A stretch of 63,965 nt of DNA, from IMG/VR virus record IMGVR_UViG_3300037714_000156, positions 1 through 63,965 of that record, one strand, 5' to 3'. Both the position numbers and the translations under genes were made by a program. The first letter of the stretch is position 1. Each line of letters starts with the position of its first letter. This document shows, in pieces, positions 33,169-52,241 of the stretch. This DNA comes from a virus (lineage: Duplodnaviria > Caudoviricetes). The notes beneath the pieces are model-generated. The model had not been told where the DNA came from. It worked only from the letters and a program-made list of their open reading frames with translations, and searched no databases.

Positions 33169-33179
33169 GCCGTTTGTCT

Positions 33180-33255: not shown

Positions 33256-33456
33256 ATGAAAAAGCAGACATCAGTAAAAAAACAATTTAAGAAATTGTTG
33301 GATGACACAATTAGGTCTGCGGAAGAATATGGCAGTAAAAAAGAAACCAAAGAAATGGCGACAAATTATATAGCAGGGGCTTTAAGCATACTTAAATGGA
33401 ACAAAAGGAAATTGAACACATTTGTTAATAAAAATTTTCTAAGGAAAGTAAAATGA
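33256..33456 (+). CDS. Hypothetical protein
   Basis: 66 aa, AGAAAGGAA RBS. Confidence 0.6.
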   Translation: MKKQTSVKKQFKKLLDDTIRSAEEYGSKKETKEMATNYIAGALSILKWNKRKLNTFVNKNFLRKVK

Positions 33457-34148: not shown

Positions 34149-34354
34149 AATTGCCCGAAGACATAACGCTCAGGGATTATTTTGTAGCTCATATCGTGGA
34201 GGGAATATTATCTAATGAGTTTGAGACCTTAGAATTATTCAAAGGTAAGACGAAAGAAGAAGCGGTTAAAGACCTTGCTAACGCTGTATATAAAATAGCA
34301 GATGCTTTAATAGCGGAAAAACAAAGGAGAGAGGGAAAGAAGGGAGATGATTAA
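34145..34354 (+). CDS. Conserved small phage protein
   Basis: TLRDYF...AVYKIADALIAE motif. Confidence 0.7.
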   Translation: MKLPEDITLRDYFVAHIVEGILSNEFETLELFKGKTKEEAVKDLANAVYKIADALIAEKQRREGKKGDD

Positions 34355-34568
34355 ATACTTTATTTTTTTAATTCTATCACTTGTGATTGTTGCAGGTTTT
34401 CACGTGTTGGTGATAACTCTTGCTGATATTGAGACTGATGTGAACAATCCATCAACTTGGGTATTCATTTTTATTATGTGTTTTAACTTAGTCATAACTG
34501 AAAAAACATTCACTCATTGCTATAAACAATATCTACATTCAAAAGAAAAAGGAGAAAAATTCCTATGA
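34347..34568 (+). CDS. Small membrane protein
   Basis: Two hydrophobic segments, coupled start. Confidence 0.55.
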   Translation: MIKYFIFLILSLVIVAGFHVLVITLADIETDVNNPSTWVFIFIMCFNLVITEKTFTHCYKQYLHSKEKGEKFL

Positions 34569-35584: not shown

Positions 35585-35593
35585 GGATGCAGT

Positions 35594-35791
35594 ATGACTA
35601 TTATATTAATATCTTGGCTGATCGGCGGGACTCTTGTTGCGTGGGTTATTATAAGAGCAATCAGGAAGGGAAAGAGGCTACGGAAAGAGATGGATGATAT
35701 TTATAAAGATGCCCTTCGCAAAACAGGAGGAGGTAAATCGGGGATTAAAAAATTTGCAGTTTGGAAATTACGTGAGCATAATTTGAATTAG
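35594..35791 (+). CDS. Small membrane-anchored protein
   Basis: N-terminal TM, basic tail. Confidence 0.5.
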   Translation: MTIILISWLIGGTLVAWVIIRAIRKGKRLRKEMDDIYKDALRKTGGGKSGIKKFAVWKLREHNLN

Positions 35792-35851
35792 TAAGTTGTC
35801 ATAAAGACAGTAATAAATCATCAACAAACAACAAAAGGAAAGAGGTTATTT

Positions 35852-36301
35852 ATGCCGGGAAAAAACAAAAACACAGGTAAAGGCAAGAAGGCTGACAAAG
35901 TGAAAAAGGAAAAGGCTTCTAAGAAAGATAAGAAAGAAGTTGTTCAGCAGAGTCCGCCAGACGGTCAAATGAGCCACGTACAGATTATTTCTAAAGAAAA
36001 GAAATTGACCGTACAGGAAACCGCCGATTGCGGTTCTGAGCTTGCACAGGAAGAATTACAGTTGGACCAGGTGCGAAAGGAAAAGAAAGAAACAAATCGT
36101 GGATTCGACACCACCATCAAAGATCACCTTGTTAAGATTATGCAATTGTCTCAAGCGATTGATACCGGAATTCTTACTACTAACATCGAGTGTGACGTTG
36201 TTCTTGAGCGGGAAAAGGAGAGAAAGGTATGCTATCCGAAAAGCGGAGAAGAATCTTTCATCCTGCCAATGACACCGGACGATTACGATCTTCTTACTTA
36301 A
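35852..36301 (+). CDS. Hypothetical protein with Lys-rich N-terminus
   Basis: 149 aa, GAGG RBS. Confidence 0.65.
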   Translation: MPGKNKNTGKGKKADKVKKEKASKKDKKEVVQQSPPDGQMSHVQIISKEKKLTVQETADCGSELAQEELQLDQVRKEKKETNRGFDTTIKDHLVKIMQLSQAIDTGILTTNIECDVVLEREKERKVCYPKSGEESFILPMTPDDYDLLT

Positions 36302-38193
36302 TGAATGAGAAGATAGAAATAGTAAGAAAATCCATCAAGGAACTTGCGGGAGTATGTGACTACGCAAGTTCTGTTGATGGTGCAGGGTTTAACAAAACCG
36401 ATACAGGCTTCGGTCATTCCCTTGCGACACAGGAGACCTGGACTGATAAGCAGGCTAAATATGCTTGCAGGCTTGTAATTAAATATCACAAACAACTTCC
36501 TCATGTGGATGTAAATATTATTAGGGAATTAATGGGACAGCTCGAAGAAAGAATCCAAAAAGTTGAACTGTATAAAGAAACACAAATCACCATCTCACTA
36601 CTTACAACCAAAGAAGGAATTAAGAAGTTAGCCGTTGTGCTACCATACAATAAACAAGCGGTAGATAAAATAAAAACCTTAGAAGGAAGAAAGTGGAACG
36701 CTGAACTATTGCGATGGGAATTGACTATTCAGAACCTTCAAAGATTAAAAGAAATGTTTCCATTAGCGACATTTTCCGACGGCATAAAGGATTATGAAGG
36801 ATTGCGTGAGCAAAAGGATAAGTTAATATCAGAGGAATTCAAAAAGATTTCTGCTGATATTGATTTAACCAAACAATTACCAAACGGGAAAACGCCCTTC
36901 AAGCATCAGCAAACAGGAATACTAAGGATGCTGAAATACCGGAGACAGATCCTCGCAGACGATATGGGTTTAGGAAAAACACTCCAAGCCCTGGTAGTAG
37001 CAAAAGAATTGTCAAAGCATTATGGTTCACAGATCATAATAATATGCCCGGTATCATTAAAAGAGAATTGGGCGAGAGAGGCTAAGTCAATAAAAATACC
37101 TGTTGGGAAGATATCAATATATTCTTGGGCGAAAATTCCTGAACCGGGAACCAAGGAATATATAATGATTGCTGATGAGGCTCATTATGCACAGGCGGGA
37201 ACAAAAACATTAAGAGGGAAAGCATTCCTGAAACTTGCAGGACACGATAACTGCAAAGCGTGTTATTGTTTAACCGGCACACCGATAAAGAACGGAAGAC
37301 CTATAAATATCTTTCCTTTGCTTCAAGCGACACGGCACGAATTAGCAGGGGACACAAGATATTTTCAGACAAGATTCTGCAATGCTCATCTTCGGGAATT
37401 GGGAAGAAAGAATAAGAGGATAAAATTTTGGGACACAAGCGGTTCATCACATCTGGACGAACTTCATCAGAAGACAACAAATATTATGATACGCCGGACA
37501 AAAAAAGAATGCCTGGATTTACCGGACAAGCTCAGGGTACTTAGGGAAGCTGAATTATCCCAAGAATCTATTGACCTTTATAATAGAACATTGGATGATC
37601 TAAGAAACCGATACCAGGAAAGAATTAAGAGCGGAGAAATTAAGGATGATGCAGAAGCAATGGTAATGTTACAGCACTTAGCACACGCAGGAGCAATAGG
37701 CAAGGTTGATAGTGCTTACGAATTAGCGGAAGAAGTAGTTGAGGAAGGAAACCAGGTAGTTATCTTTTCAACATTCATCGAACCTCTAAAAACATTAAGA
37801 GATAAATTCAATAAAGCAAATATCCCGGTTGATATGCTGATCGGTGAAACCAAAGAGCGTCAGAAGCTCGTAGATAATTTTCTCGCAGGGAAAAGCAGAG
37901 TATTCTTATTGAGTATGGCGGGAGGAGTAGGTATTGATCTTTACACAGCAACAACAATCATATTAATAAATAGGGCGTGGACTCCGGGAGACGTACTTCA
38001 GATCGAGGACAGACTGCACAGGATAGGACAGAAAAATCAGGTAACATCAATATGGTTGCAGCACGGAGAGGTTGATATACACGTTGATGCAATACTCGAA
38101 TCCAAGAGTATGAATATATCCCAAGTGCTTCAAAGCAAAAACCGGGAAGATGATGTTATCACATTCGCAAAGAAATTTTTTAAGGGTAATTAA
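36301..38193 (+). CDS. SNF2/HARP-like helicase
   Basis: LADDMGLGKT, IADEAH, LTGTP, QIEDRLHRIGQ; start at the TAATG overlap 36301. Confidence 0.92.
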   Translation: MNEKIEIVRKSIKELAGVCDYASSVDGAGFNKTDTGFGHSLATQETWTDKQAKYACRLVIKYHKQLPHVDVNIIRELMGQLEERIQKVELYKETQITISLLTTKEGIKKLAVVLPYNKQAVDKIKTLEGRKWNAELLRWELTIQNLQRLKEMFPLATFSDGIKDYEGLREQKDKLISEEFKKISADIDLTKQLPNGKTPFKHQQTGILRMLKYRRQILADDMGLGKTLQALVVAKELSKHYGSQIIIICPVSLKENWAREAKSIKIPVGKISIYSWAKIPEPGTKEYIMIADEAHYAQAGTKTLRGKAFLKLAGHDNCKACYCLTGTPIKNGRPINIFPLLQATRHELAGDTRYFQTRFCNAHLRELGRKNKRIKFWDTSGSSHLDELHQKTTNIMIRRTKKECLDLPDKLRVLREAELSQESIDLYNRTLDDLRNRYQERIKSGEIKDDAEAMVMLQHLAHAGAIGKVDSAYELAEEVVEEGNQVVIFSTFIEPLKTLRDKFNKANIPVDMLIGETKERQKLVDNFLAGKSRVFLLSMAGGVGIDLYTATTIILINRAWTPGDVLQIEDRLHRIGQKNQVTSIWLQHGEVDIHVDAILESKSMNISQVLQSKNREDDVITFAKKFFKGN

Positions 38194-38326
38194 ATGAAAA
38201 GCAAAATTAAAAACTTTTTTCAAGTCTTGATTTATTGGTTGATTGTGATTGGGGTTGGTGTACTTGTATTAGCCTTATTAGTGGGGTTGTGGTATTTAGA
38301 TCACGTAAGATTTATATGGTGAAAAA

Positions 38327-38584
38327 ATGAGTGTTACACCTTTACAGTTAGAACAATTAAAAGAATTTGAAGAAGAATATTTTCAGACTTCCGGGATATG
38401 CTTTCAATTTACTTATTCAAAAATTAGAAAGAAATGGGTTGCCTATACCTTCGGGAAAAAGTTTGAGGACGCAGACTTCTTCAAGATGCTTAACAAGGTA
38501 ACTGACTACATTATAAAAAATAGAATCCCGACTAACAAGGAAAATTATCAATTCAAAAATAGATTTTGGGTTAGGAAAAACTAA
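38327..38584 (+). CDS. Hypothetical protein
   Basis: 85-aa ORF in the operon. Confidence 0.55.
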   Translation: MSVTPLQLEQLKEFEEEYFQTSGICFQFTYSKIRKKWVAYTFGKKFEDADFFKMLNKVTDYIIKNRIPTNKENYQFKNRFWVRKN

Positions 38585-39367
38585 ATGCCGAGAGGAAGAA
38601 TGTTAAACAAAAAGATAAGTTTCGATGAAGTTGTCGCCAAACTTTCACTCAAGTCAGCACTTTTTTTCAGTTGGAGCATCGCACATCTCGATGTTGGAGG
38701 GAAAATTTTAGGTGATCTCAACTATTTGAAGGGAAATATTGTCCCGTACCGACAAGATTTTACTGTAAAAGACATACAAAAGTGTCTTGATGAACTCTCT
38801 GATGCAGGTCTTGTTATTGTCTATGGAGATACTCATAAGTATCTGAAATTCAAAGGGTTTGAGAAGAATCAAAAGGTAAATGTAGATAAAGAAGCACAAT
38901 CGGAAATACCCAACCCTACTCCAGAGCAACTCCAGAGCAATTCCAGAGTAACTCCCGGTAAAGTAAAGGGAAGTATAAGTTTAAGGGAAGGGAAAGACGG
39001 CGGAGTAGATCCTCCGCCTTCCCCCTTTTCTTCTATACTCGATGTTTGGAATTCTTTCGCTAAGAAGAACGGATTAGCAACGATAGTTAGTCTTTCAGAT
39101 AAAAGAATAAAATCAATAGACAAACGAGAGAGAGAAAAAAAATTTAATCTACAAAGTATATTTGACGAAATTGAAAAGAGCGAGTTCTTACGAGGGAAGA
39201 ATGATCGGGGGTGGAAAGTTGATTTTGATTTTGTTTTTTGTAGTGCTAACAATTATCTAAAAATCTTAGAAGGAAAGTACAGAACAAATGGAACAAATAG
39301 GAAGCAAGATCGGGGAAGTGTTGACATCAATAAGTACATCGAAGAAGCCGACACAATCATTAAGTAA
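38585..39367 (+). CDS. Phage replication initiator (replisome-organiser type)
   Basis: MPRGRMLNK...D.GG N-terminus; GWKVDFDFV...YLKILEGKY C-terminus; internal tandem repeat. Confidence 0.75.
   Translation: MPRGRMLNKKISFDEVVAKLSLKSALFFSWSIAHLDVGGKILGDLNYLKGNIVPYRQDFTVKDIQKCLDELSDAGLVIVYGDTHKYLKFKGFEKNQKVNVDKEAQSEIPNPTPEQLQSNSRVTPGKVKGSISLREGKDGGVDPPPSPFSSILDVWNSFAKKNGLATIVSLSDKRIKSIDKREREKKFNLQSIFDEIEKSEFLRGKNDRGWKVDFDFVFCSANNYLKILEGKYRTNGTNRKQDRGSVDINKYIEEADTIIK
38918..38955 (+). repeat. 11-bp tandem repeat (x3.5), candidate origin iterons
   Basis: ACTCCAGAGCA ACTCCAGAGCA ATTCCAGAGTA ACTCC within the initiator gene. Confidence 0.7.
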
Positions 39368-39884
39368 AAAGAAATCACTTCACGAATGGTTTCCGACAAA
39401 TTCAGAATGGAGTAAGCAGTTCAATGAAACGGATCTCGAGTACCATCCATTTTGTACCGGGATATTCGCAAATTTAGAGGCAGCGAAAAGAGAAAAATTC
39501 CCTAAAGAAACAATGAGGGTATGGTTCATTGAATTTGTAAAGCGGGGATGGACAAAGAAAATGCTATTGAAAAGATATGAAGCATTATTAGCAAAACCGA
39601 TTTTCGGGAAGGAGAATTTGGAGTTTGCTGATTGGGTTAATGCTGTCCCTGTTTATGCGGAAGATGAAATGAGTAGCATAGTTAACCGGCGAGTAGATGC
39701 GATAATCCAAAAAGGACAATTCCTTAAAGACAAGAAAGTAAAATTGACGGCGGAAGATAAGCAAGCAATTGAGGCAGCGATAGCGATGGAGATCGCCTTC
39801 AAGTATTCAAACAACAGATACGAACTCTTGGATAATTATAAAGCACTCAGGAAAGAAAAACGATTGAAGGAATTAAAGAAATGA
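39288..39884 (+). CDS. Hypothetical replication-associated protein
   Basis: Overlaps the initiator 3' end by 80 nt with an MEQIG start. Confidence 0.55.
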   Translation: MEQIGSKIGEVLTSISTSKKPTQSLSKKKSLHEWFPTNSEWSKQFNETDLEYHPFCTGIFANLEAAKREKFPKETMRVWFIEFVKRGWTKKMLLKRYEALLAKPIFGKENLEFADWVNAVPVYAEDEMSSIVNRRVDAIIQKGQFLKDKKVKLTAEDKQAIEAAIAMEIAFKYSNNRYELLDNYKALRKEKRLKELKK

Positions 39885-39969
39885 CAGTTGTTATAATAGC
39901 GTTAATTTGCGTTACCATTATATCTATCGTTGGTCTGATTTTAATTTATATGGATGGGAGGAAAAAGAA

Positions 39970-40275
39970 ATGAAAGCAGAAGTAATATTTCTGACGGAAG
40001 AAGATTTAATAAATAATTTTACAAGCCATTGGTTAGAGTTTGTTATTTACGCCCGATCAGAAAAAACCGTAGCAATTAAAGTCAGGAACAAAGAGGAAAA
40101 CCAAACCATTGGGATAATCGCCTGGTATAAAGAATTCAGAGCTTACGCCTTTAGACCGTTCCCATCAACAGTTTTTGAACGTGTATGTTTGCGGGATATT
40201 ACAAATGTTCTTGAGGAACTAGAAAAAATCAGGAAAGGCAGAATAACAAAGCGAAGGAATAAAAATGAAAGTTGA
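39970..40275 (+). CDS. Hypothetical protein
   Basis: GGGAGG RBS before ATG 39970; IGIIAWYKEFRAYAFRP...CLRDI. Confidence 0.6.
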   Translation: MKAEVIFLTEEDLINNFTSHWLEFVIYARSEKTVAIKVRNKEENQTIGIIAWYKEFRAYAFRPFPSTVFERVCLRDITNVLEELEKIRKGRITKRRNKNES

Positions 40276-42112
40276 CATAGGGATAGAAGTAAATCTTGAA
40301 AGGCTGATCGAAACAAGATTGCTCATCCAAGCAAACTCAGGCGGAGGGAAAAGCTATGCAATCCGGAAACTGCTTGAAGCGACACACGGAAAGGTTCAAC
40401 AAATAGTTCTTGATCTTGAAGGAGAGTTTTCATCACTCAGGGAAAGGTATGATTTTATTTTATTCGGAGAGCAGGGAGATTACCCGGTCAACATAAAATA
40501 TGCAGAGAAAACAGCGAGAACATTACTTGAATTAAATGTATCAGCTATCATTGATCTGTATGAACTTAAACATCACGAAAGGATTACATTCGTAAAGCGG
40601 TTTCTTGACTCGATGATAAACGCACCAAAAGGTTTATGGCATTCCTGTTTGGTTGTAGTTGATGAGGCACACATATTCTGCCCGGAGAAAGGACAGTCTG
40701 AAGCGATGGGATCTGTAATTGATCTAATGACGAGGGGGAGAAAAAGAGGTTATTGCGGGATATTGGCTACTCAAAGATTATCTAAACTACATAAAGATGC
40801 AGCAGCAGAAGCGAACAATAAGCTAATCGGACGTACCGGGTTAGATGTTGATATGAAACGAGCGGGAGAGGAATTGGGGTTCACAAGTAAACAGGATATG
40901 CTTTCATTAAGAAACTTATATCCGGGAGAGTTCTACGCCTTCGGTCCGGCGATAAGCAACACAATCGAATCAATAAAAATCGGGAAGGTATTCACAAGCC
41001 ATCCAAAAACAGGAGCAAGAATAACTGCGGTTCCACCTGCAAGCGAGAAGGTGAAAAAAGCACTCAGCAGAATTAAAGAACTGCCGGAAGAAGCTGAAAA
41101 AGAATTGCAGACAATCCAGGATTACAAAAAGGAAGTTCATTCATTGAGAGGGCAGTTAGTCCAGGCAAAGAAACAACAGCCGATCAATAGTGGGTATGCT
41201 ATGAAATATCAAGAGATTATTACAGGACTTAGGGAAGAAAACAAATTATTAAAATTTCAATTAACGGAACTCAAAGGATTCCAGGATAAAATAAAGATGG
41301 CGGTTGTTATTCTTGGAAACCATGCTATGTATTTAAGCACTAAAGTTGTAGATCAGATACAGAGCAAAGCAAACGATATAAAAAATGTTGTTGAAGACCT
41401 CACCAATATCAAACCGCCAGAACTGAAAAGAGCAAAGAATGTAAGAATAGACGTTCAACAACTTGACCCTATACGATTGTCTGATACAGAACATATTAAG
41501 AGAGAGTTTGTCAGCCGAGAAGAATTAAAGAAAAAATATCCGATTGCTGTTATTCCTGAGATTAAGCATAATCGAGAAGCATCAATTTTTAGAAACGCAT
41601 TGGATAAAACCGAAGGGAGATTTTTTGTTAGCGAGAATAAAGAAATTAAACTCCGGGAAGGTGCAAGACGTATGCTTGCTGCATTGGTTCAATGGAGCCC
41701 TAACGGAATGACCGAAGGGATGATGAGAAGCCAGGCAGGGCTAAAAAAGAGCGGGACATATTCAGCCTATAAAACAGATTTGAAGAACGCAGAATTCTTT
41801 CATGAGAGTAATGGACTATTCTATGCAACACGGGCAGGAATAGAATGGCTCGGACACGACATCCCATCACCCGCAACGACACAGGACGTTCTTGATGTAT
41901 GGAAACCAAAGTTACGATTAGGAGCGAGAAGGATGCTCGATGTATTGATTAGTTACAACGGGGAATATATTACAGACGAACAATTGTTAAGCGAAGCAGG
42001 ATTGAGTAAATCCGGGACATATAGTGCTTACAAGACGGATCTAAAAACAGCAAACTTAGCGATAGTCGAATCGGGGAAGATTGCTGCAAACAAAGAGACA
42101 TTATTTTTATGA
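40265..42112 (+). CDS. HerA/FtsK-like (DUF87) ATPase with coiled coil and two C-terminal wHTH-like repeats
   Basis: QANSGGGKS, LDLEGEF, VVDEAH, RGRKRG, ATQR; duplicated KLRxGARRML...GLxKSGTYSAYKTDLK. Confidence 0.85.
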   Translation: MKVDIGIEVNLERLIETRLLIQANSGGGKSYAIRKLLEATHGKVQQIVLDLEGEFSSLRERYDFILFGEQGDYPVNIKYAEKTARTLLELNVSAIIDLYELKHHERITFVKRFLDSMINAPKGLWHSCLVVVDEAHIFCPEKGQSEAMGSVIDLMTRGRKRGYCGILATQRLSKLHKDAAAEANNKLIGRTGLDVDMKRAGEELGFTSKQDMLSLRNLYPGEFYAFGPAISNTIESIKIGKVFTSHPKTGARITAVPPASEKVKKALSRIKELPEEAEKELQTIQDYKKEVHSLRGQLVQAKKQQPINSGYAMKYQEIITGLREENKLLKFQLTELKGFQDKIKMAVVILGNHAMYLSTKVVDQIQSKANDIKNVVEDLTNIKPPELKRAKNVRIDVQQLDPIRLSDTEHIKREFVSREELKKKYPIAVIPEIKHNREASIFRNALDKTEGRFFVSENKEIKLREGARRMLAALVQWSPNGMTEGMMRSQAGLKKSGTYSAYKTDLKNAEFFHESNGLFYATRAGIEWLGHDIPSPATTQDVLDVWKPKLRLGARRMLDVLISYNGEYITDEQLLSEAGLSKSGTYSAYKTDLKTANLAIVESGKIAANKETLFL

Positions 42113-42291
42113 AAGAAATAATTAAGAACATAAAAGCACAAATTAAAAGCTGTAAGAAATATAAACAGGATTTAGATGAGGCAAGTTGGGGATATGAAAC
42201 AGGCGTACTATTGACTGCTAACGAAGCACAAAAAATCGTGGATAAATTAAATGAAGAAAAAAAGAGAAAGAAAAAAACCTGCCTGCCATAA
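42109..42291 (+). CDS. Hypothetical protein
   Basis: 60 aa, ATGA coupling. Confidence 0.5.
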   Translation: MKEIIKNIKAQIKSCKKYKQDLDEASWGYETGVLLTANEAQKIVDKLNEEKKRKKKTCLP

Positions 42292-42490
42292 CTGCGGAGA
42301 GGAAATAATGTTCACCTGGAATCATACCGAAAAGAAGTGGACATTGGTTGAACCGTACGAAATGGATGTTGGCGAGAGAGAATTGGCGAGAGTGAAAACC
42401 CCAATTCCCTATGACCCGAATCGGCACAAAAGACATTATTGCGATCAGAACAGACAGCAAGAAAATATTGATAGGATATATCGTGGCTAA
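42251..42490 (+). CDS. Small Zn-binding protein
   Basis: CHNCG...HYC. Confidence 0.55.
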   Translation: MKKKRERKKPACHNCGEEIMFTWNHTEKKWTLVEPYEMDVGERELARVKTPIPYDPNRHKRHYCDQNRQQENIDRIYRG

Positions 42491-43121
42491 ATCAAAAATC
42501 GAATGGCATCAGAAGACGGCAGCTAAGAGGTTGGGTATTACTTTACAAGAATATCAAAAACATTTATTCAATAATGAAAAATGGTGTATAACTTGTAGAT
42601 GTTGGCACGGTAGGGGATTATTCGGTTCCGATAAAAGCAGAGGAGATGGGAAGAAATCAAACTGTAATAATAAAGCAAAGAGAAAACCTCTACAACTAAG
42701 TCTGTTTGCTAAAGATGAAAAAAGACTGAGGGCAAATCAAAGTTATCGTAAATATTACGCAAGTAAAGCAGGAGAAGACATTCGCCAAAGAATATATGCC
42801 AGAAAAAGGAACACAGAACCAATACCGGGTTGGTGGAGAAGTGAATTGCTTGAAAATTCATTATGTGCTTATTGCGATAATAAAGCAGAGACAGTTGATC
42901 ATGTTATCCCTATATCAAGAGGAGGTAGAACCGAAGAAGGAAACTTAGTTCCATCCTGTAAAAGTTGTAATAGTAAAAAGAAAAATAGCGATCCTAATTT
43001 ATGGATTGGCAAAATGAGAGAGGAACAAATAGAAAGAATAGGTGTTCAGCCGTTCATAGGGTTGGGAGCGTTAGAGATAATTGAATTATTAGGAGGATAT
43101 GATGGCTTCAACTACTATTGA
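42483..43121 (+). CDS. HNH endonuclease
   Basis: CAYC...TVDHVIPISRGG...NLVPSCKSCNSKK; likely GTG start 42483 after an AGGA RBS. Confidence 0.88.
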   Translation: MAKSKIEWHQKTAAKRLGITLQEYQKHLFNNEKWCITCRCWHGRGLFGSDKSRGDGKKSNCNNKAKRKPLQLSLFAKDEKRLRANQSYRKYYASKAGEDIRQRIYARKRNTEPIPGWWRSELLENSLCAYCDNKAETVDHVIPISRGGRTEEGNLVPSCKSCNSKKKNSDPNLWIGKMREEQIERIGVQPFIGLGALEIIELLGGYDGFNYY

Positions 43122-43821
43122 ATGGACTCAAGGACCAAATGGTGAAAAAGGAATGGTATGGAATCCAGTAACCGGCTGTACTAAAGTTTCTCCTGGATGC
43201 AAGAATTGTTACGCAGAAGATATTGCGGTAAGATTTTGGGGAAAGAGAAAGTTTACAGATATAATTTGTCACGAAGATAGATTAGAACATCCGTTGCATT
43301 GGAAAAAGCCAAGAATGATATTCGTTAATTCTATGAGTGATCTGTTTCATGAAGATGTGCCATTAAGTTTTATAAATGAAGTTTGGTCTATAATGAAGCG
43401 GACGGAATCAATCCACACTTATCAGATACTAACTAAACGACCCGAAAGGATGAATAAATTATTATTAGGAGGAAATTACGTTCTTAAAAATGTTTGGCTC
43501 GGAGTATCAGTAGAGAACCAGAAAACAGCAGATGAGAGAAGGGAATATTTAAGACAAACACCAGCATCAATCAGATGGGTCAGCTATGAACCAGCATTAG
43601 AAAAAATAAATTGGAAGGGGTGGGAGTTTATAGATTGGTTGGTCGCCGGTGGAGAATCTGGGGCTAAGAAAAGACCGTGTGATTTAGAATGGTTCAGATA
43701 CTCAAAAGCTTGGGCTGAGGCACACAACGTAAAATTCTTTATGAAACAAGTTGATAAAGTTCAACCAATACCAGGGGATCTAAGAATAAGAGAATATCCG
43801 AATGGACTCAATAAAAATTAA
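43102..43821 (+). CDS. Gp37/Gp68 (DUF5131) family radical-SAM-like protein
   Basis: IEWT, WNPVTGCTKVSPGCKNCYAE, FVNSMSDLFH, QILTKRP, GGESG, FFMKQ. Confidence 0.92.
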   Translation: MASTTIEWTQGPNGEKGMVWNPVTGCTKVSPGCKNCYAEDIAVRFWGKRKFTDIICHEDRLEHPLHWKKPRMIFVNSMSDLFHEDVPLSFINEVWSIMKRTESIHTYQILTKRPERMNKLLLGGNYVLKNVWLGVSVENQKTADERREYLRQTPASIRWVSYEPALEKINWKGWEFIDWLVAGGESGAKKRPCDLEWFRYSKAWAEAHNVKFFMKQVDKVQPIPGDLRIREYPNGLNKN

Positions 43822-43844
43822 AAGTCACCTGACATTTTTTGTAG

Positions 43845-44030
43845 ATGGATAGCGGGTTTCCGCTTGCGATACTTTGTATTTTGTCTGTGTTTTTAGTTGC
43901 TTACTCAATCGCTGTTACAAAGATGCTGATTGAGAAGGAAGAAATAATTGATAAATTCTACAACGGGCAGAAGCCAGCGAGAGTGAGCAAGTTACTATTA
44001 TTCCTTACAACAATGATAGGTAAGATATGA
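43845..44030 (+). CDS. Small membrane protein
   Basis: Hydrophobic N-terminus. Confidence 0.45.
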   Translation: MDSGFPLAILCILSVFLVAYSIAVTKMLIEKEEIIDKFYNGQKPARVSKLLLFLTTMIGKI

Positions 44031-44212
44031 AACAAGAAGACCAAATATCTTTAGCAAAAGAATTAGCTACTCTTTGGGATAGCTATGAAGAAGAAAACGG
44101 AGAACAAGCATCGTATCTATTGGCTTGCTCTGAGTTAGGTATAGACCCCAATGATGGATATGAATTGTTAGCTTTGATTGCTGATAATCCAAAGGAACAA
44201 AACAATGACTAA
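44027..44212 (+). CDS. Small acidic hypothetical protein
   Basis: 61 aa, coupled start. Confidence 0.55.
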   Translation: MKQEDQISLAKELATLWDSYEEENGEQASYLLACSELGIDPNDGYELLALIADNPKEQNND

Positions 44213-44369
44213 GCCAAAAATAAAATTAACCAAGAAAGAAATAGTCGCTTTGGCAAAAGCCATAGCGACCGTATTCAAAGCTAAAACTTTAACTGATGAA
44301 CAAAAAGAAAAAGAAATGATCTCACAGCTAAATACAGTGTGCGAGGGAAAATTAACTTGGAAGGATTAA
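44205..44369 (+). CDS. Small hypothetical protein
   Basis: AAGGA RBS before ATG 44205 (MTKPKIK...). Confidence 0.5.
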   Translation: MTKPKIKLTKKEIVALAKAIATVFKAKTLTDEQKEKEMISQLNTVCEGKLTWKD

Positions 44370-44372
44370 ACA

Positions 44373-44669
44373 ATGAAACATATAAAAGCATTATTAGACG
44401 CAAAAGAAATAAAAATAACTTGGGAATTTGACGAAGCACAAGCAGATGCAGTCCATAATCAATTCAGTTTGGAAAAACTTAAAGAAGAAATTAGCAGTCA
44501 GCTTGAACCGCAAGTTCTGAAGAAAATTGCGGACGTGACTAAAGACGAACAAGCATATTTGCATTACCTCTTAATACTAAAACAGAATGAATTGGAGTTA
44601 AGAAATAACGAGTTAGATAAAAAAGAAATTGACTCAATAAAATTACTTAGAATAAAAATAAGTGAGTAA
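44373..44669 (+). CDS. Hypothetical protein
   Basis: 98 aa, AAGGA RBS. Confidence 0.55.
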   Translation: MKHIKALLDAKEIKITWEFDEAQADAVHNQFSLEKLKEEISSQLEPQVLKKIADVTKDEQAYLHYLLILKQNELELRNNELDKKEIDSIKLLRIKISE

Positions 44670-44680
44670 GCAATTTTTCT

Positions 44681-44899
44681 TTATAACAGATTGGGCGATA
44701 AGCTGATGGCAGAACAAACATATAAATATTGCTGGGGGAATAACCCTAAACGAGAAACAATGAAAAACAGAGTTTGCAAGGTTTTACACAGAGGCAAAAT
44801 GAATAGTGCTTTAATTGAATTCATTGATAATAAACAAAGAGAAGTAACAAGCCGAAACGCATTGCGTAAATACCATTCAGCTTGATTGCTTAGTTATAA
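44681..44899 (-). mobile_element. attC-like site B, inverted; loop contains an entire small gene
   Basis: TTATAAC-agattgggc-GATAAGCTGATGG pairs with CCA(T)TCAGCTT(G)ATT-gctta-GTTATAA. Confidence 0.75.
44706..44885 (+). CDS. Small protein inside the attC B loop
   Basis: MAEQTYKYCWGNNPKRETMKNRVCKVLHRGKMNSALIEF...SRNALRK. Confidence 0.6.
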   Translation: MAEQTYKYCWGNNPKRETMKNRVCKVLHRGKMNSALIEFIDNKQREVTSRNALRKYHSA

Positions 44900-44917
44900 T
44901 TTAATTGCGGGAATAAA

Positions 44918-45067
44918 ATGAAACGTAAATGTAAGTGGTGCGGAATTATTTATAATACGAAAGAAACAAGTTCAAGACATTGTATCTACAACCCTAACAG
45001 AGAAAAAAATTTTAAGCATTACCCTATAAAGCCAAGCATTGTAAAAATATTAGCAATTAAATTATAA
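44918..45067 (+). CDS. 49-aa Cys/His protein in cassette 2
   Basis: MKRKCKWCGIIYNTKETSSRHCIYNPNREKNFKHYPIKPSIVKILAIKL; the stop codon lies in the TAAC box. Confidence 0.55.
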   Translation: MKRKCKWCGIIYNTKETSSRHCIYNPNREKNFKHYPIKPSIVKILAIKL

Positions 45068-45252
45068 CAGATTGGGCGATAATTTGCCGCCCAGAAAGGA
45101 ATAAAATATGGCACTTGACTTAAAAGAATTGGAACGGAAATTAGATGAATGCTTGCAAAAAGAGACGCCCGAAAGTTTGCGAGAATGGTTAAATAAAAAA
45201 CGTGCAGAAGAAAAAGAAGCAGATGGCGGTCAAATTGATTGCAAAGTTAGTT
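45062..45252 (-). mobile_element. attC-like site C, inverted; loop holds the RBS and 5' end of ORF 45108
   Basis: TTATAAC-agattgggc-GATAATTTGCCGCC pairs with GGCGG(T)CAAATT(G)ATT-gcaaa-GTTAGTT. Confidence 0.78.
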
Positions 45253-45491
45253 TGCGACCAGAATTACAAAAATTTGCAGAGGCGATGGAAAAAATATTAG
45301 AATATCAGGATAGGTATAAAAGTGGTTGGGAAAATTGCACATTACAATATTTGAGTATGAGGTTGACACAAGAACGGAAAGAACTTGCCGAAGCATTTCA
45401 GAAAAAAGACAAAGAAGCAATTAAACACGAATGTTGCGACATAGCAAATTTTTGTATGATGATTTATGATAATATTGACAAAGCAAACTAA
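45108..45491 (+). CDS. Cassette-borne protein with MazG-like C-terminal helical motif
   Basis: LTQERKELAEA...HECCDIANFCMM; the attC arm encodes GGQIDCKVS. Confidence 0.65.
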   Translation: MALDLKELERKLDECLQKETPESLREWLNKKRAEEKEADGGQIDCKVSLRPELQKFAEAMEKILEYQDRYKSGWENCTLQYLSMRLTQERKELAEAFQKKDKEAIKHECCDIANFCMMIYDNIDKAN

Positions 45492-45565
45492 CTCTGTGAT
45501 AACGAGAATGGAGTCTCATATCAGGATAATGTATCAGAATAAATCTACAAAGAGGAACATTAAAT

Positions 45566-46192
45566 ATGTCAATAGACAACTCAATACTTCGAGAACAAAT
45601 GCGTCAGCAGGAACGTCAGCAACAGAAGCAGCAGAAGTTACAGAAAAAAAAGAGAGAGGAATATTTTAAGTCTCTTTCTAAAAAGAAAAAACATACTTCC
45701 GACATTATCACGGTAAGCGATTATAAAAAATTAACAGAGCCTGCCACAAGGAAAACATATAATAATCTCAAAAGATGGTTTAATATTTATATAAAAGTCA
45801 GAGATTTATTTGTTGACCATGACGGAAGAATTAAAGGAAGGTGTATAGCTTGCGGGAAATTATGGGTAGTTGAGTTTTGGGAGGATGGGACAATAAAGAA
45901 CAACGAGCTATGGTGTGCTTCTCATTACTTCCTTGCGGATGAATTTACTTCAGTCGAGTTCTACGAAGCAAACGTAAATCTATCCTGTTATAAATGTAAC
46001 AGGCGTTTATCCGGGAATCTTGCTATGTATAAAATCCATCTTGAAATGAAAATCGGTCACGATGAATTCCGTAAACTTGAATTCAAAAAGAACGAAACAC
46101 TTAAACTGAATGTGCTTGATATGATTAAGCTCAAAGAACTTTATATGGATAAAGCGAAAAAAGAAATTAAACGATTAGGGATTAAACTTTGA
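45566..46192 (+). CDS. ninG: NinG/Rap-like recombination nuclease
   Basis: FNIYIKVRD, CIACG, ASHY, EANVNLSCYKCNRRLSGN. Confidence 0.82.
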   Translation: MSIDNSILREQMRQQERQQQKQQKLQKKKREEYFKSLSKKKKHTSDIITVSDYKKLTEPATRKTYNNLKRWFNIYIKVRDLFVDHDGRIKGRCIACGKLWVVEFWEDGTIKNNELWCASHYFLADEFTSVEFYEANVNLSCYKCNRRLSGNLAMYKIHLEMKIGHDEFRKLEFKKNETLKLNVLDMIKLKELYMDKAKKEIKRLGIKL

Positions 46193-46205
46193 AAGGAAAA
46201 GATAA

Positions 46206-46421
46206 ATGGAATCGGAAGACGAAAAACCAGGAGCGACAGGGAAATTCCCGGAAGGGAAGTTGAACGAAGACGACAAGGGAGAAATTAAAATGATTATCGG
46301 CATAGATCAGGGAAAAGTAATTATTCATTTTGGTAATATCCCGATCAGTTGGATTGCAATGACAAAAGACCAGGCATTAGCTATGGGAAGAATGTTATTC
46401 GAGAAAGCAGATTTATTATAA
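46206..46421 (+). CDS. Conserved small phage protein
   Basis: GATGKFPEGKLNEDDKGEI; GAAAGGAA RBS. Confidence 0.65.
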   Translation: MESEDEKPGATGKFPEGKLNEDDKGEIKMIIGIDQGKVIIHFGNIPISWIAMTKDQALAMGRMLFEKADLL

Positions 46422-46430
46422 GGTAAGCAA

Positions 46431-46712
46431 ATGAATTCAGATGTTTGGACGGAATATAGAAGGCAGCAAAACCAACGAAGAAAAAAGAGACTACCTCATC
46501 GCATTGAACTACTCTATAAAATATGCGGGACTCTTAATCTCAAGGTAGAAAAGAAAACTGAATATCAATACCGCATCAGCAACGACGAAAGATCAATAGA
46601 TATTTATCCAATTCATTATAGATGGCATGATATAACAACCAACAAGCGAGGACAAGTCAAAGGGGATGGCGGACTCAAAGAATTGTTGATACTTAAATTG
46701 ATAAAACAATGA
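46431..46712 (+). CDS. Hypothetical protein
   Basis: 93-aa basic ORF. Confidence 0.55.
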   Translation: MNSDVWTEYRRQQNQRRKKRLPHRIELLYKICGTLNLKVEKKTEYQYRISNDERSIDIYPIHYRWHDITTNKRGQVKGDGGLKELLILKLIKQ

Positions 46713-47035
46713 TTGACAAGCTCAGGCACTTAGAATTGTTTGCCGGGATAGGCGGATTCTCTTTAGCATTAAAGAACGCATACAAAGGGGAGATTCAAAC
46801 AGCATACTCCGAAAAAGCAATGGAATACAGAGAATTCCAAGATCAGTTTATTAAAGACGGCAAATATCGAGTAGTGGACAGAGAAGACTCAACATTGCAG
46901 TTACAATGGTATGTATATAAAAATACCAGAAGATATTTTCATACTGTAAATGTTGACAAGAAATCATTAATTGATATTGTCCTACTAACAATAGAAATGT
47001 TTCCAGAAGAATTTAAGAAAGAGAGGAAGAAATGA
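46709..47035 (+). pseudogene. ORF beginning with a C5-cytosine methyltransferase motif-I fragment joined to unrelated sequence
   Basis: LRHLELFAGIGGFSLAL present, but no PCQ or ENV motif in 108 aa. Confidence 0.55.
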
Positions 47036-47517
47036 AAAACCAATTAACAAACAAACACTACGAACTTATCGGGATGATAGCGTTAAATCTTCCAGACGAT
47101 ACGGACGAAGTAGCTTGTCTTAAAGTATCTGAATTATTCCACGACGAAGCCATCTACGCTCACGAAAATGGAGAATGGATATTCCACACAAGCGAATATT
47201 TACGTTTACATCCGACAGAACAAGATGCAGAATGGTTCGCAAAACAAATACTTGAAATTGTCCGTCCTGAACCAAAGGAAATAAAAACAAAAACAGTTGC
47301 ACCAAAAGAAACATTGTTTCAAGTATTTTGTACTTCATCTTTGATGGAAGACGATTGTATAGTAGTTACCACAGACAGGGGTATAGAAAGGGCAATAGAA
47401 ATAGCTAACGCATATCTAACGGAAAAATATGATGATGAACCCGGTAATGAACCATACAACATCCAACAAGTAAAGCAGATTGATTTAATATGCGAAGACG
47501 AAGAAGGGGGGCTGTAA
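47032..47517 (+). CDS. Acidic hypothetical protein
   Basis: 161 aa, GAGG RBS. Confidence 0.6.
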   Translation: MKNQLTNKHYELIGMIALNLPDDTDEVACLKVSELFHDEAIYAHENGEWIFHTSEYLRLHPTEQDAEWFAKQILEIVRPEPKEIKTKTVAPKETLFQVFCTSSLMEDDCIVVTTDRGIERAIEIANAYLTEKYDDEPGNEPYNIQQVKQIDLICEDEEGGL

Positions 47518-47523
47518 AACAAT

Positions 47524-47718
47524 ATGAGACTAATCAGAATTCAAATATTCGCAGGGCTAAAAGGAGTGAGCAGACAGACGGTACACAGTTTGATAAAATC
47601 CGGAAAACTAAAAACCAGAAAGTTATCGGGGATGAAACTGATCGTAATGGACAGCACGGCGAAGAAATGGAAGCCAACACCGGGAAAACGTACAGATTTA
47701 CGGAAGGGCGGACAATGA
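47524..47718 (+). CDS. HTH DNA-binding protein
   Basis: FAGLKGVSRQTVHSLIKSGKL. Confidence 0.75.
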   Translation: MRLIRIQIFAGLKGVSRQTVHSLIKSGKLKTRKLSGMKLIVMDSTAKKWKPTPGKRTDLRKGGQ

Positions 47719-47993
47719 AAACATACGCAGTATTTCATTTCGATGATGATAAGAAAGGATTCGAGAGATATAAATTCATTGAAGATGCAGAAACAGACAC
47801 ACCCGAAAAACTCGCAAGAGAATATTACGAAGATGAATGGGGCATTGACCCGAACAAAGAAGTAAAAGTATCTGTTTTAGATTCTCAGATAACAATTCAC
47901 AGATTAAAATTCGCAAGTCAAACAGTAGCATACATTCCACGCAACGGCGGGAAAGCAATAGTTTTTGCGGAAAGGATAAAAACAAATGCCTAA
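47715..47993 (+). CDS. Hypothetical protein
   Basis: ATGA-coupled start MKTYAVFHF within the longer 47490 frame. Confidence 0.55.
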   Translation: MKTYAVFHFDDDKKGFERYKFIEDAETDTPEKLAREYYEDEWGIDPNKEVKVSVLDSQITIHRLKFASQTVAYIPRNGGKAIVFAERIKTNA

Positions 47994-48198
47994 ACCAACA
48001 GTAGATTTATCAAAAGAGACATTCAAGAAAATCAAAACCTTCAGCGATTTAACGCTATGGTTAAGATATGTTGAGGGGAAAATCCCTGCTAACACTCCTA
48101 TCTTAATGCAATCAGATGAGGAAGGGAATCAGATCAATAAAATCCTTTGTTTGGATTACACGGAGATAGGATTAGTAATAGTACCATTAGAAGAATAA
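47986..48198 (+). CDS. Small hypothetical protein
   Basis: PILMQSDEEGN motif; AAGGA RBS. Confidence 0.6.
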   Translation: MPKPTVDLSKETFKKIKTFSDLTLWLRYVEGKIPANTPILMQSDEEGNQINKILCLDYTEIGLVIVPLEE

Positions 48199-48243
48199 CA
48201 AATTAACAAAACACACATACACAAAACAGAAAGGAACAACGCT

Positions 48244-49509
48244 ATGCTAAAAGAATTCAAGATTCTCACCAACAATTTCAGCTTCAAGGGATTGAAAGCA
48301 GAAATACAAACCTTCGAGGGAATACTGCATCGTCTCACTCATATCAAATCATACAGAATGGAGAGAAGCGGAATCATCGGGAAGGAAGAAATCAGGGAAA
48401 CAGTATTTTTCGTAATGTTCGGACAGGAACAACTCAGACAGCCGGAAGAATTTATTGTTAAGAATGATAAGTTCTTTTCTAACCTCAACGGAAAAACGCT
48501 CACCATTGCAGACCTACCGGGAATAAAGAAAGAGATCGGCGAAATATTTGATGCTCATGTACCGCTCGAAGATCGGACAAAGACACCGGAACAGCACGGA
48601 GCGGAATTGATTGAACGAAACAAAATCCACGCAGAGAATGAAGTAAAGCAGGCTGAGATAAATAAACAAAAAGCAATCGAGAAGGAAAGAGTAAAAAAAG
48701 AATATGGTTATCTATTACAATCAGATGGAAATATTTCTTCCCGGTTACTTGCAACAAAGAACATTCGCCGAGAACTTGACAATGAATTTCCCGGACACAA
48801 ATTTTCTATTACATCAGAAACATTCGCAGGCGGAGATGCAATAGACGTGAGATGGGAAGACGGAGTAACAGAACCCGAAGTAAGAGAAATCATCGGGAAA
48901 TATCAGGAGGGGCATTTTGACGGAATGACAGATATGTATAACTATTCTTATAATCCATTCAACGATCTATTCGGCGGTGCGAAATATGTTCACGCTAACA
49001 GGAAACTAACTAACGAAAGATTTATCGAAGTTGGAAAAGAGATGGGATATGATGTAGTATTTAATGATTACAAGATGATTGTTGATGGTGAAATAGCACA
49101 ACACGACGGTTCAAAGGTTGATAAGGTAAGAACGGAAACGTATAGCAGATCATTCTATGAAAAACCTGCTGCAAACAAAAAAATCGAAGTTACGGCGGGA
49201 GAAATCAACACATCAAACGGATCTATTGAAATCCGTGAGAACGTAGAGAAGGACGGAATTGAAATAAAGTTCGCAAGCAAGCCTGAAGCGGAAGTTATAG
49301 CCAAGCTAAAGATGAATGGTTTCCGATGGAGTCACGTTCATAAGGTATGGTACAAGAAAGCATCAGCTAACGCAAGGATATTCGCTGAAAGTTTAATTAA
49401 GCAGAATAACAGCAACAAAAACGGAAACACCGAAGAAGGGCTAATCACTCAAGAGAACCAAACATTTGAAACAAATCTTCAGGGAGAGAGCAGGCAGGAA
49501 CAAATCTAA
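48244..49509 (+). CDS. LPD29-domain (polyvalent-protein-associated) protein
   Basis: KNIRRELDNEFPGHKFSI...IDVRWEDG...FDGMTDMY; C-terminal GIEIKFASKP...LKMNGFRWS...WY. Confidence 0.78.
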   Translation: MLKEFKILTNNFSFKGLKAEIQTFEGILHRLTHIKSYRMERSGIIGKEEIRETVFFVMFGQEQLRQPEEFIVKNDKFFSNLNGKTLTIADLPGIKKEIGEIFDAHVPLEDRTKTPEQHGAELIERNKIHAENEVKQAEINKQKAIEKERVKKEYGYLLQSDGNISSRLLATKNIRRELDNEFPGHKFSITSETFAGGDAIDVRWEDGVTEPEVREIIGKYQEGHFDGMTDMYNYSYNPFNDLFGGAKYVHANRKLTNERFIEVGKEMGYDVVFNDYKMIVDGEIAQHDGSKVDKVRTETYSRSFYEKPAANKKIEVTAGEINTSNGSIEIRENVEKDGIEIKFASKPEAEVIAKLKMNGFRWSHVHKVWYKKASANARIFAESLIKQNNSNKNGNTEEGLITQENQTFETNLQGESRQEQI

Positions 49510-50361: not shown

Positions 50362-50661
50362 ATGATTGATCTCATCAGGTGGTTCAGGCGGAGACCAATC
50401 GAAAGAGAAATAGCAAAGCACAGACTCCAAGCACTTAAAAGAAAATATAAACATTGCTCAAGGAGATGGGAGACTAATCAGTCAAATATGAATATGTCAA
50501 CTCTGAGATTAATGGAAGCTAAAATAATTTACTATGAAGAATGTTTCAGAGCTTGGGGAAAGTACAGACCAGAATTTTCATTCAATGATAAGCAGAATAA
50601 AAAATACGAAGATGAACTAACAGAATTGCAGATCCCATTTGAGAAAGTGAAATGGATATAG
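50362..50661 (+). CDS. Hypothetical protein
   Basis: 99-aa ORF between terS and terL. Confidence 0.45.
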   Translation: MIDLIRWFRRRPIEREIAKHRLQALKRKYKHCSRRWETNQSNMNMSTLRLMEAKIIYYEECFRAWGKYRPEFSFNDKQNKKYEDELTELQIPFEKVKWI

Positions 50662-52241
50662 AACTCCAACCAATACAAAACCAACTTTGGAAACTATACG
50701 ATAAAGGTAAAGCAACAAAGATAGGATTCGGCGGACCTCGGGGAGGGACTAAATCTCATAGTGCTGATTCGCTGATGATAATGAGAAGATTAAAGTATCG
50801 AGGGACAAACGGATTATTCATTATGAGAGTCTATCAGGATATGCTTGACATTCATATCCGTCCGATGTTTGATGCTTACCCTGAATTAGAAGCAGGTTTT
50901 AATAAACAGGATATGATATTAAAACTACCTTACGGCAGTTACATTAGATTTTTGTCAGGAGAGAATCTTGAATCATTTCAGAAAAGAAAGGGCAGAGGAT
51001 TCGCTGATGTTATGATAGATCAGTCAGAACTATTCAGCAAAGAGGAAATAGAATTTCTTTACACGATCAACAGGTCAGTTAAGCCAGGTATTACTCCGAA
51101 AATGTTACTTTGTTTTAACCCTGGTAACATCGGACACGCATATCACAAGCGGGTATTTTATGATAAAATTTATGAAGACAATGAAGTACCTGAAGACTTC
51201 GCATACTTGCAAGCGAAGGGATGGGACAATGCGTATTGGGCTATAAAAGATATGGCAAGAATAAAAGGATTAGAACCGGGCGGTTTGGACGGGCAACAAA
51301 TATTAAAATTGATTCACGAATATCACAAGCTGAACGAAGACACCCGATTCAAAATATTTATAAGAACCGATTACGGGAAAGTTCTTGACGGACTACCAGA
51401 CAGCAAACGAAGGGCGGAGTTGTTAGGTGATATGGAAATCTTTGAAGGTATGTTCTTTGAAGACTTCAGAAGAAAGTATCACGTTATAGAATACGAAATA
51501 AGTAATTTCAGGAAGGCAAGTATAGGCGGACTTGATTACGGCAACGTGACAGTCTTAATAGTTTTGCAGCGAGATTCAGAAGGAACAATCATTGCAGGAG
51601 GGGAATGTTACTTGCCGGATCTCACGAACCCGACAGAGAGAGCGAATGCAATAGCAGATTATCTTCTGGAGAATGAACTACACAGGCTTGATATAGTTTA
51701 TGATACTGATATGGAGATCAGTCAGCTTAGCAACATAGGAGTTGATAAAACACCAATAACAATATTCCGGGACGTGTTCAAACAGAGGATGGGAGAGAAA
51801 GCCCCGAAGATGAGATGCGTAAATAAAACATCACTTGATAAGAAGAAACATTACCGGGTAGTTGTCAATGATGCAGTGAAAGAATATCTTCACATCAGAA
51901 AACTTTGTTCACAATGCAAAATGATGCTGAGGAAAGACGAAGATAAATGTATCAGATGCAAAGCGACAGTAATTTACCAGACGAAGTTATTCATATCAGA
52001 GAATTGTAAGTTTCTGATTAAGTTTTTAGGCGAAGCAATTTATGACCCGCTCGATACAGCAGGCAGAGACTTCGACAGGTCACAGACACCAAAGAAAGAT
52101 CACCCGTACGATGCAATGAAATATGGATTTATGGAATTGTATGTACCGAAGAAACCAAAGGAAGACAGTCGCCCGAAGTGGTTAAGAGATTTAATCAAAG
52201 CGAGAAACCTGGAAATGAGCCAAGACTTTATGGAAGCATAA
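50652..52241 (+). CDS. terL: Terminase large subunit
   Basis: GGPRGGTKS Walker A, CFNPG coupling motif, GGLDYG and DHPYDAMKY nuclease motifs. Confidence 0.92.
   Translation: MDIELQPIQNQLWKLYDKGKATKIGFGGPRGGTKSHSADSLMIMRRLKYRGTNGLFIMRVYQDMLDIHIRPMFDAYPELEAGFNKQDMILKLPYGSYIRFLSGENLESFQKRKGRGFADVMIDQSELFSKEEIEFLYTINRSVKPGITPKMLLCFNPGNIGHAYHKRVFYDKIYEDNEVPEDFAYLQAKGWDNAYWAIKDMARIKGLEPGGLDGQQILKLIHEYHKLNEDTRFKIFIRTDYGKVLDGLPDSKRRAELLGDMEIFEGMFFEDFRRKYHVIEYEISNFRKASIGGLDYGNVTVLIVLQRDSEGTIIAGGECYLPDLTNPTERANAIADYLLENELHRLDIVYDTDMEISQLSNIGVDKTPITIFRDVFKQRMGEKAPKMRCVNKTSLDKKKHYRVVVNDAVKEYLHIRKLCSQCKMMLRKDEDKCIRCKATVIYQTKLFISENCKFLIKFLGEAIYDPLDTAGRDFDRSQTPKKDHPYDAMKYGFMELYVPKKPKEDSRPKWLRDLIKARNLEMSQDFMEA

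Follow-up and report, generated by a model that had tools for sequence, protein, structure and literature searches.

The window analysed here is the whole of IMG/VR record IMGVR_UViG_3300037714_000156 (Duplodnaviria; Caudoviricetes), a complete phage genome (63,965 bp) bounded by direct terminal repeats of 127 bp, in which portal and large terminase are present and every long open reading frame (ORF) lies on the + strand, one of them coding for 4,654 amino acids (aa). Our subject is a pair of bulged, long-range inverted repeats between 44681 and 45255, which we call sites B and C, and the small genes that they precede or enclose; the two sites lie 381 nt apart in a genome with no integrase and resemble the attC recombination sites of integrons. 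The labels R' and R'' denote the outer boxes of a site, and L' and L'' its inner arms. The features of the locus are the following.

44681-44687, + strand: R' box of site B, TTATAAC, with a predicted crossover between 44686 and 44687
44688-44696, + strand: left spacer of site B, 9 nt (AGATTGGGC), the 3' part of which is able to pair with the right spacer
44697-44709, + strand: left arm L' of site B (GAT AAGCTG ATGG), which includes the ATG of the 59-aa ORF
44706-44885, + strand: 59-aa ORF, entirely inside the loop of site B, its TGA stop using the unpaired G
44873-44887, + strand: right arm L'' of site B, CCAT(T)CAGCTT(G)ATT, with unpaired T at 44877 and unpaired G at 44884
44893-44908, + strand: R'' box of site B, GTTATAA, with its extension, pairing 16/16 with 45053-45068
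44918-45067, + strand: 49-aa ORF, cargo of cassette 1, its TAA stop being the TAA of the next TAAC box
44687-45067, + strand: predicted cassette 1, 381 nt, from site geometry and box complementarity
45053-45068, + strand: end box of cassette 1, the offset complement, which is also the R' box of site C
45069-45077 and 45078-45090, + strand: left spacer and left arm L' of site C (GAT AATTTG CCGC)
45108-45491, + strand: 127-aa ORF, cargo of cassette 2, with its first ~46 codons in the loop and right arm of site C
45226-45240, + strand: right arm L'' of site C, GCGG(T)CAAATT(G)ATT, with unpaired T at 45230 and unpaired G at 45237
45246-45255, + strand: R'' box of site C, GTTAGTT, with its extension, pairing 10/10 with 45483-45492
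45068-45491, + strand: predicted cassette 2, 424 nt, from site geometry and box complementarity
45483-45492, + strand: end box of cassette 2 (GCAAACTAAC), the offset complement

Both bulged inverted repeats lie where the first-pass annotation, made from the letters alone, had placed them, with the unpaired T and G in their right arms, and its 21-bp repeat is exact (44681-44701 and 45062-45082), has no further match at up to three mismatches and arose in none of 100 shuffles. Site B reads TTATAAC, 9 nt, GAT AAGCTG ATGG, a 163-nt loop, CCAT(T)CAGCTT(G)ATT, GCTTA and GTTATAA; site C reads TTATAAC, the same 9 nt, GAT AATTTG CCGC, a 135-nt loop, GCGG(T)CAAATT(G)ATT, GCAAA and GTTAGTT. The two offset complements reported between each GTT box and the next TAAC box also hold base for base (44893-44908 with 45053-45068, 16/16; 45246-45255 with 45483-45492, 10/10); the 10/10 complement falls inside a 14-nt pair of 93%, and a genome-wide search for GTTA-X...X'-TAAC pairs with at least six extra bases found none beyond those at sites B and C. 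A complete site 3' of cassette 2, after 45492, was looked for and none was found. The 59-aa ORF has no Pfam family match, and the 127-aa ORF has a weak MazG-like match under the Pfam cut-off. The positions of the arms and ORFs bear out a further claim, that the attC-like site is inverted relative to the gene, stands at the 5' end of the gene and holds the ribosome-binding site (RBS) and start, or a whole gene, inside its long loop.

The geometry of the two sites was written as a pattern (TAAC, a spacer of 2-12 nt, 3+6+4 bp, loop, 4 bp, (N), 6 bp, (N), 3 bp, N5, GTTA) and the window was scanned on both strands, with the unpaired bases left free. At a threshold of at least 12.5 of 13 pairs, exactly three sites were found (32768/32950, 44684/44893 and 45065/45246), all on the + strand and each with a 9-nt left spacer. 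As the pattern was taken from sites B and C, the independent confirmation is the third, site A. At the same threshold, none of 200 dinucleotide shuffles gave a site; the first-pass annotation had made its case conditional on such paired sites being rarer in shuffled sequence, and they are. A very relaxed geometry scan and a scan with the R box alone were discarded as mostly noise.

32765-32956, + strand: site A, 13/13 pairs, with the same geometry as sites B and C
32771-33185, + strand: predicted cassette A, containing a 119-aa ORF at 32809-33168
33180-33223, + strand: site E, a compact 44-nt hairpin directly 3' of cassette A

Site A runs GCATAAC, N9, CTT AACGGG AAGC, loop, GCTT(G)CCCGTT(G)AAG, CCAAA and GTTAGCA, and the box that starts at 32950 pairs 15/18 with 33169-33186 when read manually. 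Site E is built of paired TAAC and GTTA, a 6-bp stem, a single unpaired G (position 16), a further 4 bp and a loop of 3 nt; it folds as predicted, at -8.5 kcal/mol, and none of 200 shuffles was equally stable. Its R box would pair at 9/10 positions with the flank to the left of cassette A, and site E and this left flank together read like the insertion target of cassette A.

The same site design occurs in eight other phage contigs (G001, G002, G003, G008, G009, G011, L111 and L059), always on the coding strand. Motif scans of IMG/VR gave five sites in G002 (within 2.8 kb), three in G003, one in G008, two in G009 and five in G011; G001 has one full site (13/13 pairs, unpaired T and G) and one half site with a near-identical left motif, at ~356, for which a right arm was looked for and not found. 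The 80 metagenome loci (465 kb) collected by a search with DUF5131 gave two sites with at least 12.5/13 pairs, both family-like. G002 has no blastp or tblastx match to the window or to G001, and the site family therefore crosses phage lineages. In 14 sites, the arms covary: cognate arms pair at a mean of 12.86/13 positions, vs 7.65 for the 182 non-cognate pairings, two to four kinds of Watson-Crick pair occur at 10 of the 13 stem positions, and six G.T pairs vs one A.C were counted in the stems. Of the unpaired bases, the one at position 16 is G in 12/14 and the far one is T in 13/14; G and T recur in all eight sites added later, for totals of 20/22 and 21/22.

We concluded that the paired-site pattern is real, structured and recurrent, and not the product of chance. 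At the relaxed threshold of 12, the scan gives 0.475 hits per shuffled genome, and a few of the single family sites could be false; the arrays could not. Left out of the counts were G001 6984 (C/C unpaired bases, AT-rich), G002 14089 and L041 287/290 (compact, uncertain), and the L150 minus-strand rows 7793 and 13047 with L154 3803 (no G/T, AT-rich), while L041 H was retained despite a score of 11.5. A scan with 16-17-mers returned 13 stretches, only three of which are family sites, the others looking like chance; a 17-mer common to G001 and G002 had seven further IMG/VR matches, none with a site; and the exact 21-mer has no copy in IMG/VR.

The chaining of the boxes is the second regularity. 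The window, G002 and G003 together supply nine cassettes, and in each of these the GTT box is complementary to the end box of its own cassette over 8-16 bases, vs only 3-8 bases for the left box of the same site; non-cognate box pairs match over a mean of 5.1 bases, with 5/72 reaching nine. The same complementarity was found in G011 (5/5) and G009 (1/1), a total of 15/15 scored, and by manual reading in L111 and the G001 cassette. Offset complementarity of this kind is classically taken to argue that cassettes form circles and are exchanged at a fixed triplet, and the boxes may be read in that sense here. The middle of the box is private to each cassette; the distal part is often common and adjoins the RBS of the cargo. 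In L154 (G011; 1653-3476), L148, L039 and L041, the extended stem often has an extra base on the AAC-side strand, ~10 nt from the box, and the common distal part ends in GGCGG beside the cargo RBS.

A third regularity concerns the reading frame. In sites A and C, the cargo protein starts in the loop and is translated through the right arm, and in at least 14 of the 22 sites the right arm is read in one fixed frame, x-x-[VIL]-[DE]-x-x-V, whose D/E codon begins with the unpaired G (44873-44899, 45226-45252 and 32930-32956 in the window, and in relatives). The related arrays include DNA methyltransferase genes.

Published attC rules, as excerpts of PMC5027507 give them, describe a bottom strand of the form 5'-RYYYAAC, L', variable loop, L'', GTTRRRY-3', with G extrahelical at position 16, T conserved at 23/24 and an obligatory 6-bp stem between the two, sometimes a third extrahelical base at position 20, spacers of 5-6 nt, a length of 57-141 bp and an excess of G.T pairs. 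With positions numbered backwards from the GTT box, the unpaired bases are G16 and T23 in sites B and C and G16 and G23 in site A, in each case on either side of a 6-bp stem; the scan left the identity of the unpaired bases free. AAC and GTT occur in every site (the scan required them), and the right spacer is 5 nt in the window sites and 4-6 nt in relatives. In G16, the 6-bp stem, the T at 23 (sites B and C) and the 5-nt right spacer, the match with the attC bottom strand proposed by the first-pass annotation stands, and in left spacer, length and gene orientation it does not. The boxes agree in part, the RYYY fit being 2/4 for TTATAAC and 3/4 for GCATAAC. The classical placement, in which the site lies 3' of an ORF that is antisense to the bottom strand, is replaced by sites on the coding strand that enclose the start codon.

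As a positive control, the scanner recovered canonical GCCTAAC...GTTAGGC sites in L021 (IMGVR_UViG_3300033146_001838), an unrelated viral contig. The two canonical-looking attC sites of this contig lie on its reverse strand at ~5404-5497 and 5975-6102 (reverse-complement coordinates), have the form GCCTAAC...GTTAGGC/T with 13/13 arm pairs and unpaired T and C, and with small genes on the opposite strand make up a classical cassette array; no tyrosine recombinase was found in this 30%-complete record. One attC-like site (TTCTAAC...GTTAGGT) also lies ~2 kb from a tyrosine recombinase match in L025 (G007, a 43.6-kb record with terminal repeats), where the match is in a 368-aa open frame and scores 29.5 bits vs the IntI family cut-off of 265.

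The anatomy described so far can be read directly in the sequence, and from it we infer mobility and an enzyme. We consider it probable that 44687-45067, 45068-45491 and 32771-33185 are integron-type gene cassettes, each led by a folded site that resembles an attC bottom strand. The order of arms, boxes and ORFs makes the design a reversed one: the strand with the foldable arms is that of the genes, each gene follows its site, and inside the loop lie an RBS and a start codon, together with a leader ORF or else with the first ~45 cargo codons. In the mechanism that we propose, a tyrosine recombinase of the IntI kind, supplied by the host or by another element, would bind the folded + strand when it is single-stranded, and strand exchange would take place between the second A and the C of AAC. 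Excision would release the cassette in circular form, with its end box and GTT box paired in a stem of 10-18 bp, and a further site of this type, or a compact hairpin such as that at 33180-33223, would receive the circle. Excerpts of PMC11023631 describe a folding strand on the lagging-strand template as the more recombinogenic arrangement. The GC skew is positive along the whole + strand of the window; if this identifies the template of the lagging strand, replication would expose the strand that folds.

Several observations weigh against the proposed cassettes, and the first group concerns the sites as attC substrates. All three window sites have a left spacer of 9 nt, and relatives one of 7-9 nt, vs 5-6 nt in attC; the window sites measure 192, 219 and 191 nt from R' to R'', vs 57-141 for attC, while six sites of relatives are 122-129 nt long. 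The first-pass annotation had proposed folding the + strand as single-stranded DNA as a check. In minimum-free-energy folds, the long-range arms form in site A (z -3.65) and three relatives; they do not form in site B (z -0.1), site C (z +0.3) and five relatives, where local hairpins win. One such competitor of the long-range arm in the folds is GGGCG...CGCCC, a hairpin at 45073-45093 within the left half of site C, and the L041 site has a similar one.

The second group concerns the enzyme and the movement. The annotation had recognised no tyrosine recombinase, and a six-frame search of the complete genome with PF00589 and TIGR02249 likewise gave no match; nor does the window genome have the arrangement of a complete integron, with intI, attI and Pc beside the array. 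PF00589 is absent from the nine genomes G000-G005 and G008-G010, which comprise two complete genomes (G000, the window phage, and G001) and seven partial ones, and no recombinase gene lies beside any array examined. As neither complete genome has a tyrosine recombinase, the enzyme would act in trans. Two candidate partners were rejected: PF00589 matches lie in G011, ~4.6 kb from the array if that genome is circular, and in G012, which has no site, so there is no association with the arrays; and DUF5131 is absent from G002, G008, G010, G011 and G012. The 19-20-nt left motif, sought in 185,579 species' genomes, had six matches, none with a right arm or site. No circle or deletion joints were found in the contigs of two runs: X1, which is probably the source sample, and X2, from another study, which holds ~200-nt contigs of a near-identical phage at low, patchy cover. 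The lack of X2 cover at 44432-45015 is meaningless, since other bins are empty too. In the soil metagenome run X2, fragments of the near-identical phage were noted across 31000-48500, 42/51 contigs being at least 99% alike.

The third group comes from the relatives. The closest genome found is G001, of 66,436 bp, whose DUF5131 protein is 69% identical and whose conserved genes show 67-92% DNA identity; in the DUF5131 metagenome search (80 loci), the best match, at 69%, was the G001 record itself, and no presence/absence pair emerged. No close relative with an empty site was found. The predicted cassette units, with their proposed cut between AA and C, are bounded by complementary boxes as first claimed. 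It had also been expected that indels between relatives would fall on the TAAC boxes, and the one relative genome, G001, was compared in this respect. The blocks at 43.8-47.0 kb and 32.77-33.44 kb are replaced whole in G001 and are larger than the cassettes, and their right borders miss the TAAC boxes; homology with G001 stops exactly after the TAA of the box at 32770, which is also the end of the upstream gene, and resumes at 33442, where there is no box. The whole of 43.8-47.0 kb is non-homologous in G001, which means that ordinary mosaicism operates here too. In G002 vs G003, homologous methyltransferase bodies have different sites and boxes, and like arms have different boxes. Site halves, GTT boxes and gene bodies reassort between phages, and a single cut between AA and C cannot produce such patterns. 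As a separate observation, the ends of the G001 record (L032 6306-6436 and L029 1-130) overlap by ~130 nt with few differences, and this genome is probably circularly permuted or terminally redundant.

This reassortment, with the mosaic replacement in G001 that extends beyond the cassettes, is what would be expected if the boxes were conserved linkers or terminal inverted repeats, shuffled by homologous or illegitimate recombination in the manner of promoter early stem-loop (PeSL) motifs or moved as miniature transposable units, with no structure-specific recombinase. Identical or near-identical left motifs and GTT-side boxes that are common to different cassettes and phages with differing cargo fit that explanation too. 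We nevertheless regard it as unlikely: neither a sigma-70-like promoter nor a terminator lies at the sites, every cassette has a sequence of its own in the middle of the box, and the covarying stems, the fixed AAC/GTT spacing and the conserved unpaired G and T argue for recognition of a folded structure and not of sequence homology.

The placement of every site on the coding strand, with the RBS and start codon always in the loop, could also be understood if the paired segments were structures of early mRNA, one helix joining a 5' leader to codons 30-45 and another closing the cargo ORF, that control translation coupling, processing or stability. The toleration of G.T pairs, the GTT-side box that adjoins the cargo RBS and the right arm that in at least 14/22 sites is crossed in one frame by an ORF started in the loop, with the unpaired G starting a D/E codon, would all suit such RNA. 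We think this decidedly unlikely, as the second helix would have to span 144 to ~690 nt of translated RNA, private boxes that always start with GTT and end with AAC have no RNA rationale and are a classical sign of circular cassettes, the fixed distances and unpaired G/T bases fit the rules for IntI substrates, the same sites occur in phages without common proteins, and no Rfam family matches. That the pattern is a functionless remnant of local tandem duplication with chance inverted repeats is scarcely credible: sites B and C do have 21 identical bases and right parts that are 80% alike over 20 nt, but no shuffle in 200 gave a site, an independent third site lies 12 kb away and the family recurs, with covariation, in eight other contigs.

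Beyond the cassettes of the window, we offer a wider proposal that we hold tentatively and consider somewhat less than an even prospect. Unrelated phages may use a common pool of back-to-front cassettes, each with one folded site that would be the place of recombination and at the same time start translation and add an in-frame N-terminal linker. Integron-type integrases that the phages themselves lack would move the cassettes; as clients of host integrons, or of another recombinase, the phages would swap anti-restriction and other accessory genes. Integrons are viewed as bacterial devices in which the site stands behind a promoterless gene. If the sites are active, the variable early regions of virulent-looking phages would likewise be shaped by structure-specific exchange of cassettes, an attC could be written into the ribosome site and first codons of a gene, and unrelated phages could have cassettes in common without carrying the enzyme. 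There would then be a concrete, testable route by which methyltransferases and other counter-defence genes are gained, and a defined blind spot of integron-finding software, consisting of long, inverted, gene-overlapping sites.

The phage itself has no close cultured relative; the INPHARED collection gave no match to 43000-47000 in a DNA search, and IMG/VR gave no relatives by protein for the NinG-like protein, the 127-aa ORF or the 119-aa ORF. Just upstream of the variable block, 42411-43821 contains an HNH endonuclease gene and the DUF5131 gene, which overlap at the start of the latter. The block at 40254-42112, which lies at a different place in G001 (21097-22844), contains an ORF with a weak large-terminase-like PHROG match; a second large-terminase-like ORF is found at 50652-52241.

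With canonical attC sites, as far as the excerpts of PMC5027507 describe them, the sites share the AAC/GTT boxes, G16, the 6-bp stem, the T at 23/24 and the optional base 20, as well as the 5-nt spacer on the GTT side, the greater number of G.T pairs on the folding strand and the complementary cassette ends. They differ in a left spacer of 8-9 nt, an R' box that is only partly RYYYAAC, a loop that in the window measures 135-163 nt and contains coding sequence, a gene that is sense to the folding strand and the lack of intI, attI or Pc.

Integrase-less attC clusters (CALINs) in phages have already been published: Qi et al. 2023, in the parts of that paper available to us (PMC9892861), reported 17 of them, virulent phages included, and IntI1 recombined five of the six phage attC sites tested. 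Like those clusters, the arrays described here place attC-type sites between small accessory genes with no phage integrase, and methyltransferase cargo, common there, is present in the related arrays. The clusters of that study were found with IntegronFinder/HattCI and are mostly of classical layout, whereas here the site precedes and overlaps the gene, the coding strand folds, the window sites measure 191-219 nt and the R stem is 10-18 bp. Our geometry scan of Polaribacter phage P12002L from the same study found no family member (12 weak rows, none above 12/13). Within the abstracts, sections and passages that it covered, a literature search found no description of attC-type sites that stand in front of a gene and enclose its start.

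The PeSL motifs of T4-type phages, as described in excerpts of PMC2839356 and PMC4122927, are likewise short conserved motifs that flank small variable genes in hyperplastic regions and are tied to gene gain and loss. PeSLs consist of a promoter and a terminator and are thought to be homology-driven, whereas the sites here have long-range covarying helices and fixed unpaired bases. No + strand promoter-like or terminator-like consensus matched on any site, and the single terminator-like hairpin, in site C (45093-45073), is on the - strand. A closer parallel to the coding overlap is provided by the synthetic attC sites of Nivina et al. 2020 (PMC7439510, in excerpt), whose function depends on structure, so that a site can be written into nearly any sequence, genes included; those sites were engineered, whereas the ones described here are natural and apparently dual-coding in a fixed frame.

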